From contig JAUIAT010000001.1 of NCBI GenBank assembly GCA_030425295.1, positions 69,392 to 133,391 of the forward strand: a DNA stretch of 64,000 nucleotides. Reading direction: 5' to 3'. Position 1 is the stretch's first letter; every line of letters starts with the position of its first letter. The position numbers were made by a program. This document shows, one piece after another, positions 9,001 to 15,000 of this stretch. The DNA is from Gammaproteobacteria bacterium (lineage in GTDB: Bacteria; Pseudomonadota; Gammaproteobacteria; JAUIAT01).

Positions 9001-12000
9001 CTGGCTATGGATCATCACTCTCGAAACATCTAGTATAACAACTTTAAAGTATTACCCAATAAGATAGTCTCTTGGGTCAAAATTAACTGTCATTCCGCGA
9101 TCAAGTCGCGGAATGACAAAGTTTTGTTTTTTTTCAGTCTGAGTTTCTATTTAGAAAAATTTTCAGCTGCAAAATCCCAGTTAGCAAGCTCCCAGAAGTT
9201 GCTAACATATTGGCCGCGATTATTGCGTGTATCAATGTAATACGCATGCTCCCAAACGTCACAAGTCATGATTGGCGTTTTTCCTTCAGTCATTGGATTT
9301 TCAGCGTTTGGAGTTTTGACGATCTCTAAAGATCCTTCAGAATTCTTTACAAGCCAGGCCCAGCCAGAACCGAATTGAGTCATGCAAGCTTCAGTGAATT
9401 TTGTTTTAAATTCCTCAAGTGAACCGAAAGCTTTATCGATAGCTGTTGCTAAATCGCCACTTGGAGCCTTGCGGCTATCAGGGGTCATGCTATTCCAGTA
9501 GAAAGTATGATTCCATATTTGTGCAACATTGTTGAAAATAACTCCTTGTGGAGCTGACTTGATAATTTCTTCAAGGCTCATGTTTTCATATTCAGTGTCA
9601 GCAATTAGTTCATTTGCTTTATTAACGTATGCAGCATGGTGCTTGCCGTAATGATACTCAAGGGTTTCTTTGGAAATATGAGGTGCAAGAGCATCCATAG
9701 AATAAGGGAGTTGTGGAAGTTCAAAAGCCATTGTTTTCTCCTGGGTTAATGTTTTTGCTTTATAAGATCAATTTTTGGTAATGCTTTAAAATAGTTATTT
9801 ACGTTTCAAGGGGCGGATCCCTCTTTGCGGAAATCCAGTAATATTCTAAATTAAACAACTATTTTAAAGCATTACCCAATTTTCAACTGTGCCCCAAGAT
9901 TCTGCCCAAATTAATTTTAATTATCAACATCTCTTTAGGTCTTGCGCAGGATTGCTAGGAATGTTGCTCGATTTTTTTTGGTTTTTATGTTATAATATCC
10001 GCCTGTTATACCCTTTAATAAAACTCTTGGGAGATTTGAAATGAGCGTACTTGTAGGTCGTCAAGCCCCTGACTTTACTGTTCCAGCTGTTACTGGTGAC
10101 GGTGAAATTGTTAACGAATATAATTTTTTTGAAGCGACTGAAGGCAAATATGCTTTAGTATTCTTCTATCCACTAGATTTTACTTTTGTATGTCCTTCAG
10201 AGCTTATAGCTCTTAACAACCGTATTGAAGAATTTAAATCACGTAATGTTGAGGTTGTTGGTGTTTCTATTGACTCTCATTTCACACATAACGCGTGGCG
10301 TAATACTGCAGTTAAAGATGGTGGTATTGGTCAGGTTAATTACACTCTAGCTGCTGATATTTCTCACCAGATCTGTCGTGACTATGGTGTCGAACATCCA
10401 GAAGCTGGTGTTGCTTTACGTGGTGCTTTCTTAATTGATCAAAATCGTAAGGTTAGAGCTCAAATAGTTAACGATCTTCCGCTAGGTCGTAACATGGGTG
10501 AGTTACTACGTCTTGTTGACGCGCTTCAGTTCCATGAGCAGCATGGTGAAGTTTGCCCAGCTGGATGGCAAAAAGGCGAAGAAGGTATGGTAGCTACTCC
10601 TGAAGGCGTTGCTCAGTATCTTGATAAGCAAGCTGACGGACTATAAATCTTATTTAGATTTTTTTAGTTTTGATAAAGCCCGCATAATGCGGGCTTTTTT
10701 TTGAGGTTTTTAAAATTGATAAATATAGTAAGAAGGCATTTCATTTGGGATAAACCTCGCTAAATTATCAATAAGGGCGCTTCACGCCTTATTGATAAAG
10801 CTTTCTATTAGATCCCTCTGAGTTGCCTTCGCAACCCTCGGGATAAACCTCGCTAAATTATCAATAAGGGCGCTTCACGCCTTATTGATAAAGCTCGGTA
10901 TTACATTTCGTCGGAGTGTTTGGCAATGGCGTCAAAGGTTTTATCTCGTAGCTTTGTAAATGCCTGCCAATCATCGCCTTCTGGCATTATCGGCTCACTG
11001 AAATACATTTTAATTCTTTTAGGGCGCACTAAGAAGCTATCGCCAGGAAGCATTTCTCTAGTTCCTACTAGAGTAAGGGGGTACACTGGCACATTAGCCT
11101 CTGCTGCTAGCTTGAATGCTCCAAGTTTAAATGACCTTAGTCCTTTTGATCCTGTAAAAGTTCCTTCGGGATATATAGCAATATACTGAGCACCTGAAAG
11201 ACGTCCTTTCATTTGTTGGAGCTGGTTAAAGCTTTGGCGTGCATTTTCTCTAGAAATTGTGATGTGGCCAAGTTTTTTCATGGCTGAGCCAAGTATTGGA
11301 GTCTTTGCTAACTCAATTTTTCCAACAAATGACGTATTAGTAGGTAGGTAAGCTAGTAGTATTAGAGGGTCAAGATAGCTAGCATGGTTGCATGCTATGA
11401 CACCAGACTCTTTTCGTAAGTTTTCTTTCCCATGCACCTCTACTGGCGAAAAGATCATGAATAATAGGAAGTGCCCATAAGCTCTAGCAAATTTTCTTCC
11501 ATATTTTAGGGGAAGTATGTGTACACACATCCAGGCAAAAGGTAAAGATGCGAGCAAAAGGCCAGCAAAGTAGAGTGTATATACCAACCTTAATGACTTG
11601 CTAAATAACCTTTTAAGCCTTACGCCTAAACTCTTATAAGTTAAAGATATAAGTTGTTGCAATTGTCCTGGGTGGCGAGTTGTTTTTAGTTTTCCTTCTT
11701 CGTAAGCCTGTTTACAGGCATGCCTTTGCAATTTGCCACTTGAGGTTTTGGGTATTCTATGTGGTGAGACTAACACAACTTCGTCAGGCTTTATAATGCC
11801 CTGTTTGCCAATAGCCTCTATTACTTTGGCCTTAATTTTGCTTCTTTGTCTTTTCCATCCAGGGTTTATTTCAGCGACTAGTATGAATTTTTCTTTTTGT
11901 GAGACTGGGTTGATTGATCCAAAAGCAATTACACACCCTTTGCGAATACCTTCAACCTCTCCGGCAAGTGTTTCAACTTCATCAGGATAAATATTGTGTC

Positions 12001-15000
12001 CGGCTTTAACAATTACATCTTTTTTCCTGCCCGTAATGAAAATATTATTATTCGCAATGTAACCAAGATCACCTGTTCGCCACCAACCATGATCAAAGAC
12101 TGCTTCTGTCGCCTCACTATTGCGATAGTAGCCCTGCATGCTTGAAGGGCCTCTAAATTGGATTTCTCCGACCTTTCTTTCGGGTAGCAGATTACTTTCT
12201 TCATCTACAATGCGAATTTCATGCCCGGGTATTGCTTGTCCGCAACCGACAAATCCTACTCCTTCTTCAGGAGTTTTTGCTGGAGTGGCAACCCCATTAA
12301 TTGTTAGAGCCTCTCGCTCTATATAATCTACAATAGCAGAGGTTTGCCGTTGTGGAAAAGCTAGTCCAACCGTTGATTCTGCTAGGCCGTAAACAGGAAA
12401 GTTTGCTTCTTCGCGGAAATTGAAGTGCTTAAATCTGTTTGAAAAGCGTTCGATAGTTGAGTGCCTTACAGCTTCTGCCCCGTTAAAAGCAACTCTCCAG
12501 CTGCTGAGATCCAAGCCTCTAATAAAGCTATCAGGGACTTTACGTATACAAAACTCATAGCCAAAGTTTGGGCTTCCGGAAATAGTTCCTCGATAATTGT
12601 GAATTGCCCATAACCAGCGTTCCGGTCTTGCTAAGAAGGTTAGCGGCGACATCAAAACTAACTGATTGCCATGGTAAAGGCTTCCAAGCCACATTCCGAT
12701 TAACCCCATGTCATGATAGAGGGGAAGCCAGCTAACAGCAACGTCATCTTCAGTGACACCAAGCATTTCTCCGCAGCTTCGTATATTTGCAAGCAGGTTG
12801 CTTTGGGTTAAGACTACGCCTTTGGGGGTTCCCGTGCTACCAGATGTGTATTGGATTAGCCCTATATCTTCACTTGAGGCCATTCTAGGCCCATTAGTGG
12901 GTTCACCTTTTACCAGATCATCAGCTTTGTATATTTTTCTTAGACTAGGGATAAAAGGTTTAACTAATTGGGTTAGCTTGTCTACTTCTGAAAAAGTAAC
13001 TAAAGCCCTGGCTTGAGCATTTTGTAAGATTTTAGTTTGGCGATTTACATACCTTTCGATTTCGTCTTTACGGATTGGAGGGTATATTGGGACAGGAATT
13101 GCCCCTGCTAGTAAAACCCCAAGAAAAATAGGAAAGAAGTTTTTTTCAGTTGGTAGCATAATAGCGATAGTATCACCGCGCATAATTTTAGATTTACTAA
13201 GGTTTTCTGCAACTATGCACGCCTGCTCGTAGAGTTCGCCATAGCGAATTACTATCTCTTGATCATCTGGAGTTATAAGTCGAATATGTATTTGGTTTGG
13301 CTTTTGTGTTCCGTAAAGTTTGATAACTTCATTAATGCTTTTAGCCTTTGTGATATCAATATGAGGCTCATCTTCTCGTGCTTTTTTGTATTCTGGCTCA
13401 GAGGCTTTAAGTTTTTTTGCTTTACTTTTTGTGTGTTCAATTGCTGTTGCCAGTTCTTTTATGTTTTTAGCCTCTAGTAGGATTGTATCTGGTAGGCGAA
13501 CATTAAATTTTTCTTCCACTCTATGGAGTAATTCGCTGCGCTCAATGCTGGCAAGCCCTAGATCTTTTTCCAGATCAGTAGAGGGGGTGATTTTTGACTT
13601 TGCAACTGGAGCGCCGCCAATCTCTGTTAATAGTTGTTCCGTAATTTTGATGAGTGCTTTTGTTGTATTCATCCATTTCCTCTACATATAAGGATGTGTT
13701 GTGTTTGTTAGTAATGGCTCTTGCTGTATTTTTAATTTGTTACACCAATTACCAATAGATCATATAAGACCCTAATTATCGCATAAAAATATAATTTTTC
13801 CTTTAAAAATGCTAGAGTAAATGCAGATAATTAAATAGGGTCTGTTAGGGTTTAACATGATATTAATAATTTCAATTATTTCTATAGTTTCACTAATGGT
13901 GATATGTGGCTTTCTAACTTTAAATCTCAAAAGCTTAAGCAGACATTTTTCTGATCTTAAAATTCGCCTGGAAGAACGAGATAAGTCTGCCGATTCTCGG
14001 GATAAATATGTAGAAGAGATGGTTAATAATTTTCGTCAAGATCAGCAAAAACAACATGCTAAGTTTGATGAACATCAGTTTAAAACCTTAAAACACCTGC
14101 AAGAAAGTTTACAAGGCGGGATGGGAGAAGTTCGTAAACAGGTAGGTGAGGCGCTTAAGCAATATTCTGATCAGGTTGGAAAGCGCGTTGATGAGTTAAA
14201 TAAAACCACAAAAGAGCAGCTCAAGGAAATTAGTGGACAGGTTGATAAGCGGTTAAGTGATGGATTTGAAAAAACTAATGCGACCTTTAATGATGTTGTG
14301 AAGCGTTTGGCAATGATTGATCAGGCGCAACAAAAGATTACAGACCTCTCTAATAATGTTGTGAGTCTGCAAATGATTTTGGCAGACAAGCGTTCACGTG
14401 GTGCATTTGGTGAGGTTCAGCTATCAGCATTAATTCGTAATATGATGCCCGAAAATCACTTTGAATTGCAGTATACGCTTTCTAATAAAATGAGGGCAGA
14501 CTGTATTTTATTTTTGCCTTCACCTACAGGTAATATTGTTATTGACGCTAAGTTTCCTTTGGAAAGCTACGAGAAGGTTATTGATCCAACTTTGGATGCA
14601 GTGCAGCGTAAGCCTGCAGAACAAATGTTTAGGCAGATGATTAAAAAACATATTCAAGATATTGCCAGCAAATATATTATTCCTGGAGAAACCGCGGATA
14701 GCGCTATGTTATTTTTGCCAGCAGAGGCTGTATTTGCAGAAATTCATGCACATTATAGAGATCTAGTTGAATATGCTCAACAAAACAGGGTTTGGTTGAC
14801 GTCTCCAACTACCTTAATGGCGGTGCTAACTACAGCCAGAGCAGTAATTAAAGACGCCGCAACTCGTAAGCAAGTGCATATTATTCAGGAGCATTTAGTT
14901 GGTTTGAGCAAAGATTTTGATAGATTTAAGACAAGAATGAGTGCGCTGGCAAAACATATTGAAAAAGCGCATGAAGATGTTGGCAAAGTTCATATATCTT

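Follow-up and report, generated by a model that had tools for sequence, protein, structure and literature searches.

The locus studied here raises the question of what a bacterial protein does that carries an acyl carrier protein (ACP) domain, an acyl-AMP ligase and a PlsC-type acyltransferase in a single chain. The gene lies at 10901–13672 on the minus strand of a 64,000-nucleotide stretch of DNA from a Gammaproteobacteria bacterium (assembly GCA_030425295.1, contig JAUIAT010000001.1, positions 69,392 to 133,391). The whole of this stretch is called the window in the following, and positions refer to it unless another locus is named. The present analysis suggests that the product is a self-contained, CoA-independent lipid acylation enzyme at the cytoplasmic face of the inner membrane, in which a three-step relay would take place within one polypeptide. 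On the basis of sequence comparisons and structure predictions, we assign this reading a probability of roughly 65%.

Gene Integrity and Domain Architecture

The gene consists of one intact open reading frame (ORF) of 923 codons, with an ATG start and a TAA stop, encoding an ACP domain, a fatty acyl-AMP ligase (FAAL) domain and a PlsC domain.

10901..13672, minus strand: complete ORF of the ACP–FAAL–PlsC fusion, 923 aa (stop codon TAA at 10901–10903; identical ORF on an independent contig).

A Pfam search of the fusion protein returns, in this order, PP-binding (residues 24–78, E = 4.7e-9), AMP-binding (residues 139–516, E = 2.9e-62) and Acyltransferase (PF01553, residues 744–868, E = 1.2e-30), together with a weak match to a DIP2-like C-terminal subdomain at residues 553–665. 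These domain assignments are far beyond chance, and they bear out the initial annotation of the locus in placing three domains in one polypeptide in the order ACP, acyl-AMP ligase, acyltransferase. Every motif quoted in that annotation, which gave no strand, is present at the expected position of the minus-strand product, namely DLGLASIERSEL (containing Ser42), YTSGSTGTPKG (275–285), YGLAEST (428–434), TGDLG (533–537), PKTSSGK (641–647), CNHASYLD (761–768) and YPEGT (834–838).

The possibility that the gene is a misassembled fusion of separate genes was checked and is excluded by an independently assembled Logan contig from a public sequencing run, which carries the same, identical 923-aa ORF, there too adjoining rmuC. 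In addition, the best 120 homologues listed (44–52% identity) are full length and contain the AMP-binding and Acyltransferase domains, PP-binding being called as well in most of them. The fusion is therefore real, being neither a misassembly nor a frameshift artefact. The G+C content near the gene is 0.40, equal to that of the rest of the window. The full-length AlphaFold2 model has a predicted local distance difference test score (pLDDT) of 87.5 and a predicted template modelling score of 0.84, and contains one disordered linker, located between the ACP and the FAAL domains.

The Carrier Domain and Its Linker

The N-terminal part of the protein comprises the following features.

13433..13672, minus strand: ACP (PP-binding) domain, residues 1–80, with helices I (2–17), II (42–56), III (64–67) and IV (71–80) (Pfam PF00550, NCBIfam acyl_carrier matches, sequence matches to ACPs in the PDB, AlphaFold2, Foldseek).
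13547..13549, minus strand: codon of Ser42, the predicted 4'-phosphopantetheine attachment site in DLGLA-S-I (invariant; aligned to solved ACPs).
13337..13432, minus strand: Lys/Glu-rich flexible linker, residues 81–112 (pLDDT 53–55 in the full-length model, which shows no secondary structure here; least conserved segment in the family).

The PF00550 match scores 36.8 bits against a cutoff of 20.8. With the first 121 residues as query, the NCBIfam ACP models give E-values down to 3.7e-8, at scores under their whole-protein cutoffs, and in the PDB sequence matches to the same segment Ser42 falls on the serine that carries phosphopantetheine in the DS(L) motif of solved ACPs. This serine is invariant both in an alignment across several phyla (62/62) and among closer relatives (71/71). 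The 71 closer relatives also all have L38, E47 and R51, and across phyla these three residues hardly vary. The position preceding Ser42 is variable (D, G, A or S); it is Ala41 in the window protein, while 39 of the 62 homologues have Asp-Ser.

An AlphaFold2 model of residues 1–110 has pLDDT values of 89–95 over most of the segment 1–80 and contains helices at 2–18, 42–56, 64–67 and 71–90, helix II beginning at Ser42 in this as well as in the full-length model. When the model was compared with the PDB by Foldseek, the best 50 matches listed were all ACPs, with target-normalised TM-scores of up to 0.85 and root-mean-square deviations (rmsd) of 1.6–2.8 Å. The N-terminal domain is thus a genuine ACP by the alignment of its invariant serine to solved ACPs and by the modelled fold; both the conserved serine and the fold, on which the initial annotation had made its carrier assignment depend, are present. 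The linker that follows, being Lys/Glu-rich, poorly conserved and predicted to be disordered, fits the role of a flexible tether.

The Adenylation Domain

The features of the central domain are as follows.

11678..13336, minus strand: FAAL domain, residues 113–665, with motifs A3 (275–285), A5 (428–434), A7 (D535), A8 (547–552) and A10 (K647) (Pfam, NCBIfam, PDB, Foldseek, motif conservation).
12257..12340, minus strand: FAAL-specific insertion, residues ~445–472, straight after motif A5 (about 25 residues without counterpart in E. coli FadD and Aas).
12626..12646, minus strand: equivalent of the FAAL-specific helix, PLTFLAR, residues 343–349, corresponding to T252–R258 of E. coli FAAL (EcFAAL) (alignment to 3PBK; AlphaFold2 helix at 343–348).

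The core motifs of the ANL superfamily are present and conserved (YTSGSTGxPKG, YGLAE, D535, GRxKD and PKTSSGK647). The top NCBIfam model is the FAAL model PRK09192, with 422.9 bits, and the best solved structures by sequence are all FAALs, among them 7R7E (E = 1.6e-93), EcFAAL (3PBK, E = 3.7e-82) and the Legionella FAAL 3KXW. The best Foldseek match is likewise 3PBK, at a target-normalised TM-score of 0.90 and an rmsd of 2.8 Å. The Aas models of NCBIfam, applied to the fusion protein, reach 23–172 bits against cutoffs of 886–1349 (e.g., 22.8 vs 886 for NF005959 and 172 vs 1221 for NF006386).

In EcFAAL, the CoA pocket is blocked by W224, M231 and F279 together with the FAAL-specific helix T252–R258, and the FAAL-specific insertion has been described in the same study (Patil et al., PMC8460268). 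In the 3PBK alignment, the three blocking residues correspond to W315, M322 and F370 of the window protein. W315 and F370 show no variation in the family, M322 is retained in at least 80% of the aligned sequences, and P343 and F346 of the helix equivalent are invariant in the 71-sequence alignment. The insertion at 445–472 aligns to the FAAL structures almost without gaps, with single-residue indels. On these sequence features, the domain is assigned as a true FAAL, including the elements that reject CoA. It would make acyl-AMP and need a phosphopantetheinyl-ACP, not CoA, as the acceptor, which gives the fused ACP an obvious job.

The Membrane Segment and the Acyltransferase Domain

Two further features make up the C-terminal part of the protein.

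11456..11665, minus strand: predicted membrane-anchor helices, residues 670–739, with a long helix at 670–719 followed by a helix at 722–739 (AlphaFold2, hydropathy, alignment to 5KYM).
10916..11443, minus strand: PlsC/AGPAT acyltransferase core, residues 744–919, with NH763xSxxD768, R808, PEG837T and VPVYPL at 861–866 (PF01553, TIGR00530, 5KYM, conservation).

The initial annotation had proposed two transmembrane segments between the ligase and the acyltransferase. One strongly hydrophobic stretch is indeed found at 694–722, with Pro711 mid-way and with flanks containing six and four Lys/Arg residues; the second hydrophobic stretch is short, at about 15 residues (732–746). Residues 690–901 align with the PlsC of T. 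maritima (5KYM, E = 4e-21), the alignment beginning in the N-terminal region of 5KYM. With its short second stretch and basic flanks, the segment presumably fits the monotopic two-helix membrane motif of PlsC better than two full transmembrane helices. From hydropathy and the structural model, it is probably a monotopic or re-entrant anchor. All three domains would be cytoplasmic under either topology, and ATP- and ACP-dependent chemistry demands that side of the membrane.

The acyltransferase core scores 106.4 bits with PF01553 (cutoff 23). In the C-terminal 265 residues, the generic model TIGR00530 (AGP_acyltrn) is passed with 105.4 bits against a cutoff of 102.95, whereas the equivalog models for PlsC, Aas, OlsA and YihG all remain far under their cutoffs. 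H763 and D768 of the HX4D motif, R808 of block II, and E836 and G837 of block III are invariant, and the block IV sequence VPVYPL is present.

Proposed Mechanism

In the mechanism that we propose by analogy with the families of the three domains, the FAAL domain would adenylate a free long-chain fatty acid with ATP. Because FAALs cannot use CoA, the acyl group would then go to the ACP in cis, i.e., to the 4'-phosphopantetheine on Ser42 of a carrier tethered by the disordered linker of about 30 residues. The acyl-ACP would next swing to the PlsC/AGPAT domain, held at the membrane surface by a putative hydrophobic two-helix motif, where the HX4D dyad may pass the acyl chain on. The acceptor would be a lyso-glycerolipid, which may be lysophosphatidic acid or else a lysophospholipid (lyso-phosphatidylethanolamine or lyso-phosphatidylglycerol, for example). 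We infer the lysophospholipid acceptor, the chemistry and the chain-length preference from the families concerned. Such an enzyme could probably incorporate free fatty acids into membrane lipids unaided. The self-contained sequence of activation, carriage and transfer that the initial annotation had suggested is the most economical reading of the protein. At 50% identity, at least about 110 clusters from many phyla retain the fusion architecture, which we count as selection on the fusion.

Several observations weigh against this reading. The acyltransferase domain reaches at most 55.6 bits with the Aas models and at most 51 bits with OlsA, far under the cutoffs; by its sequence it is of the generic AGPAT type, and the acceptor is not readable from it. 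The score of the FAAL domain with PRK09192 is below the naming cutoff of 600, which places the domain outside that curated subfamily, as FAAL-like. The neighbouring sodB, ahpC and rmuC are uninformative on function. No major facilitator superfamily (MFS) gene that might encode an LplT-type partner flanks the window gene, and the Atg22-like MFS gene of related loci (see below) was not found in the window by tblastn at E ≤ 1e-5. No phosphopantetheinyl transferase was noticed in the 64 kb, where no systematic search for one was made. Finally, we found no characterised member of the family in the literature, and no biochemical or genetic data on any member.

Distribution and Prior Knowledge

The same architecture was found in a genome scan with one genome per species in Coxiellaceae, unclassified gammaproteobacterial metagenome-assembled genomes, Acidobacteriota, Methylomirabilia and Rokubacteria, and also in Gemmatimonadaceae, Binatia, Rhodocyclaceae, Methylocapsa aurea and Thioalkalivibrio. 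Legionella cardiaca has one family member. A tblastn search of plasmids yielded full-length homologues of 37–41% identity on megaplasmids or chromids of Methylobacterium nodulans, Sinorhizobium sojae, Photobacterium, Cupriavidus, Burkholderia and Paraburkholderia; the annotation of these homologues, where present, reads only "AMP-binding protein". In a profile search of 1.84 billion representative proteins, about 110 of the best 150 matches were full length (900–1000 aa). The family is large and old.

Possible split-gene ("Rosetta stone") versions, in which stand-alone PlsC relatives lie beside AMP-binding ORFs (loci L038 and L039), turned out by tblastn to be frameshifted or fragmented copies of the fusion. 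The frame changes inside the FAAL C-terminal subdomain, and pseudogenisation or misassembly probably accounts for these copies.

Patil et al. (PMC8460268) note in a single line that lysophospholipid acyltransferases are found fused to some bacterial FAAL-like domains, and leave such proteins uncharacterised; the supplements of that paper give no details on these fusions. Together with the note of reductase-less ElbD-like homologues in PMC9131029, this mention means that the architecture is not unseen before. Its function is nevertheless invisible in current genome annotation, since the RefSeq label is only "AMP-binding protein".

Alternative Readings

A departure from the proposed relay would be that the N-terminal domain is ACP-like without being a working carrier, either degenerate, with A-S in place of the usual D-S, or a docking module, in which case soluble AcpP would serve the FAAL domain as carrier in trans, in the manner of Aas. 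The Ala41–Ser42 pair, set against Asp-Ser in 39 of the 62 homologues, and the modest PP-binding score (36.8 bits) could be taken in this sense. However, position 41 varies anyway, Ser42 is invariant in every aligned homologue with L38, E47 and R51 near-invariant, the ACP fold is predicted with confidence (pLDDT 81–95 over residues 31–80), and the domain is kept across phyla with no other evident reason. A non-functional carrier is therefore highly improbable. A different matter is the source of the fatty acid. Specialisation in scavenging host fatty acids during intracellular growth in Dot/Icm-bearing Legionellales, like that of AasC in Chlamydia, would be a sub-case of the relay and not an exclusive rival to it. 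An intracellular lifestyle is likely, because IcmS, IcmQ, DotM and DotL are encoded in the window; many close homologues come from Coxiellaceae or Legionella-like genomes; and the L. cardiaca gene is convergent with one for a VpdC-like patatin phospholipase. Nothing in the sequence points to host specificity, however, and full-length homologues with 37–46% identity occur in free-living Acidobacteriota, Methylomirabilia, Gemmatimonadaceae, Methylocapsa, Thioalkalivibrio, Cupriavidus, Burkholderia, Sinorhizobium and Photobacterium, which suggests that the activity is ancestral and general, not specific to host-lipid scavenging. The idea of a host origin of the fatty acids, raised with a question mark in the initial annotation, thus receives no support from a distribution that takes in many free-living phyla and the megaplasmids of soil bacteria, and we consider this specialisation unlikely.

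Two further alternatives concern the pathway and the acceptor. The protein could be an ElbD-like enzyme of a specialised pathway, for ether lipids or another non-canonical lipid, and not one of general reacylation. ElbD of Myxococcus combines a reductase resembling fatty acyl reductases (FAR) with acyl-activating (ACS), ACP and AGPAT-like acyltransferase domains, its ACS and ACP activities having been confirmed in vitro, and FAR-less ElbD-like homologues have been reported from other phyla, animal pathogens included (PMC9131029). The Acidobacteriota, in which elbD homologues have been reported, also carry the ACP–FAAL–PlsC architecture. The window protein, on the other hand, begins directly with the ACP and has no reductase (NAD_binding_4) domain by Pfam, so that it cannot itself make a fatty aldehyde or alcohol; no elbB-like (HAD) or elbE-like (NAD-epimerase) gene flanks it, its neighbours being ahpC, sodB, rmuC and an orphan ORF; and no ElbD-sized protein of about 1450 aa with an N-terminal extension of reductase length is among the best 150 matches in the library of 1.84 billion representative proteins. 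The chances of this assignment are accordingly small. Similarly slim is the prospect that the acceptor is not a lyso-glycerophospholipid but a lyso-ornithine lipid, as for OlsA, or glycerol-3-phosphate, or a lineage-specific lipid or metabolite. OlsA lies within the PlsC superfamily and matches weakly (51 bits), FAALs classically supply specialised lipid or polyketide pathways (PMC8460268, PMC11837247), a second AMP-binding gene is found directly upstream in betaproteobacterial homologues, and a CDP-archaeol-synthase-like gene lies nearby in Methylobacterium nodulans. Yet the OlsA cutoff is 300 bits, whereas the generic AGPAT model passes, and no olsB, PKS (polyketide synthase) or NRPS (nonribosomal peptide synthetase) gene flanks the fusion in the window. 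No gene neighbourhood, moreover, is shared across phyla. This pattern is easier to reconcile with a stand-alone, housekeeping-type activity than with a dedicated biosynthetic cluster, and it suits an enzyme working on its own.

Should the proposed in-cis relay to membrane glycerolipids be correct, many bacteria, including Legionella/Coxiella-like intracellular bacteria, rhizobia, Burkholderiales and Acidobacteriota, would own a one-protein system that recycles or imports fatty acids into phospholipids, needing no acyl-CoA and sparing the soluble ACP pool. It would represent a third solution for the incorporation of exogenous fatty acids, beside FadD/PlsB–PlsC and Aas/AasS, and would give FAALs a role in primary membrane metabolism besides polyketide or lipopeptide loading. 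The protein would also be a compact model for a tethered ACP shuttling between an adenylating domain and a membrane acyltransferase. A broader proposal is that the family constitutes a widespread CoA-independent route from free fatty acids to membrane glycerolipids in one polypeptide, convergent with Aas from a FAAL ancestor, which in Dot/Icm-bearing Legionellales could be an entry point for host fatty acids; we offer it tentatively, as possible but on balance doubtful. The outcome at this stage is a sound, testable improvement of the annotation.

Gene Neighbourhoods and Other Features of the Window

A ribosome-binding site can be read directly upstream of the fusion gene.

13678..13682, minus strand: GAGGA Shine-Dalgarno sequence, 5 nt upstream of the ATG (read from sequence).

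Between 10500 and 14000, 8 promoter-like sites were counted against 8.0 by chance, and 7 terminator-like sites against 3.4 by chance, none of them convincing for the fusion gene; a Rfam scan of the gene and its flanks returned nothing at the gathering score. In the intergenic region between ahpC and the fusion, a 67-nt element occurs in two direct copies (10747–10813 and 10840–10906) that are 94% identical and 93 nt apart, each with a perfect palindrome of 12+12 nt (TTATCAATAAGG...CCTTATTGATAA). The fusion gene's stop codon is covered by the second copy, and the repeat region folds far better than shuffled sequences (z = −7.6). A 34-nt core of the element is found nowhere else in the window and has no Rfam match. 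The pair may represent a duplicated terminator or else a small repeat element.

Downstream of the fusion in the window lie sodB and ahpC, the latter convergent with it, while rmuC is divergent. About 13 Coxiellaceae-like loci share a conserved run consisting of a UPF0149 gene, pepP, a ubiH-like gene, the fusion, an MFS gene, trx and rho. The MFS gene following the fusion in these relatives is Atg22-like (PF11700); it is present at 10793–12061 of locus L036, with a 4-bp overlap with the fusion, and in loci L002–L011, L018 and L021. It was considered as a possible counterpart of LplT and rejected, as it matches PF11700 with E = 2.4e-47 and resembles LplT neither in a BLAST comparison with the E. 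coli protein nor by the NCBIfam models. Being Atg22-like, not LplT, and not found in the window, this gene is unusable as evidence.

Lipid-related genes adjoin the fusion sporadically in relatives, and two such cases, gpsA directly upstream of it in two loci and a phospholipase gene in L. cardiaca, are counted in favour of the proposed relay. In L. cardiaca (locus L035, 10801–12819), a 672-aa patatin-like phospholipase resembling the Dot/Icm effector VpdC is encoded convergent and overlapping with the fusion homologue, so that a phospholipase A is located beside a putative reacylation enzyme. A second AMP-binding gene of about 550–590 aa lies directly upstream of the fusion on Cupriavidus and Burkholderia plasmids (5191–6966 of locus L041 and 5167–6825 of locus L042), overlapping the fusion gene in Cupriavidus, and extra AMP-binding ORFs precede the fusion in loci L012, L013 and L025.

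The window also holds a run of Dot/Icm type IVB secretion genes at 3470–8582 on the plus strand, comprising IcmS (3470–3808), IcmQ (4365–4982), DotM/IcmP (5046–6203) and the coupling protein DotL/IcmO (6207–8582). These genes lie 2–10 kb from the fusion gene and mark the window as part of a Legionellales-type genome. Two ORFs on the plus strand have no Pfam match. One, at 44–2029, just upstream of the icm genes, encodes a polytopic membrane protein of 661 aa whose C-terminal tail is rich in Gly and Ala, and the other, at 15477–16799, is a 440-aa orphan adjoining rmuC; both could be components or effectors of the type IV secretion system. From the translations, clusters of type IV pilin-like or pseudopilin genes with the N-terminal sequence GFTLIELAIV were read at 17078–20072 (minus strand), 52261–54415 and 56026–63961 (minus strand), one set of which holds four tandem pilin paralogues. 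An assembly block for a pilus or secretion apparatus, with a PilB-like ATPase, a PilC-like platform protein, a TPR protein, an AAA protein and a secretin-like protein, was read in the same way.

Comparison with Known Systems

The C-terminal part of the protein resembles PlsC, as represented by T. maritima 5KYM and E. coli b3018. The C-terminal 230 aa align with 5KYM, the region of the putative two-helix motif included, and the two share the TIGR00530 match, the HX4D motif, the Arg of block II and the EGT of block III. PlsC itself, however, has about 245 aa, stands alone and uses soluble acyl-ACP or acyl-CoA, whereas the domain is fused here, and the E. coli PlsC equivalog model gives 33 bits against a cutoff of 501. 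With ElbD of M. xanthus, compared by its description, the protein shares a multidomain organisation of acyl-activating, ACP and AGPAT-like domains. By the same description it is set apart by the N-terminal FAR-like reductase and the elbA–E operon of ElbD, neither of which is found here, and ElbD was purified as a soluble protein, in contrast to the window protein with its predicted hydrophobic anchor.

The likeness to FAALs (EcFAAL 3PBK, the L. pneumophila FAAL 3KXW, the FAAL of the Synechococcus olefin synthase 7R7E, and mycobacterial FadD32/FadD28) extends from sequence (E = 1e-78 to 1e-93) to fold (target-normalised TM-scores of 0.75–0.90), with the insertion, the helix and the W/M/F residues in common. 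In known FAALs, the ACP that receives the acyl chain and feeds PKS or NRPS machinery is either a separate protein or fused C-terminally (PMC11837247). In the present protein, by contrast, the ACP lies at the N-terminus, and the role of downstream partner would fall to a fused membrane acyltransferase. Compared with the FAAL–ACP loading didomains, the first two steps would be alike, while the position of the ACP is opposite and the downstream partner is another one.

The best functional analogy is provided by E. coli Aas (2-acyl-GPE acyltransferase/acyl-ACP synthetase, b2836), which likewise unites a fatty-acid-activating domain of the ANL superfamily and a PlsC-family HX4D acyltransferase in one polypeptide, and which converts fatty acid and ATP to acyl-ACP, followed by lysophospholipid acylation on the cytoplasmic side of the membrane (PMC11416262). 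Aas has the acyltransferase before the synthetase, whereas the order here is ACP, FAAL, acyltransferase; it lacks an ACP domain and uses soluble holo-ACP, whereas the carrier is in cis here; it has no predicted transmembrane helix; and its adenylation domain is without the FAAL insertion. In addition, aas shares an operon with lplT, whereas the fusion family has no LplT-type gene beside it. The description of the protein as the reverse of Aas is too simple, as its adenylation domain belongs to the FAAL clade (423 bits with PRK09192, at most 172 with the Aas models) and its BLASTP identity to E. coli Aas is 26% in the synthetase part and 21% in the transferase part. The FAAL-type adenylation domain and the low identity argue for an independent, convergent fusion and not a permuted Aas, and the protein would be a functional analogue of Aas with an independent origin and an adenylation domain from a different clade.

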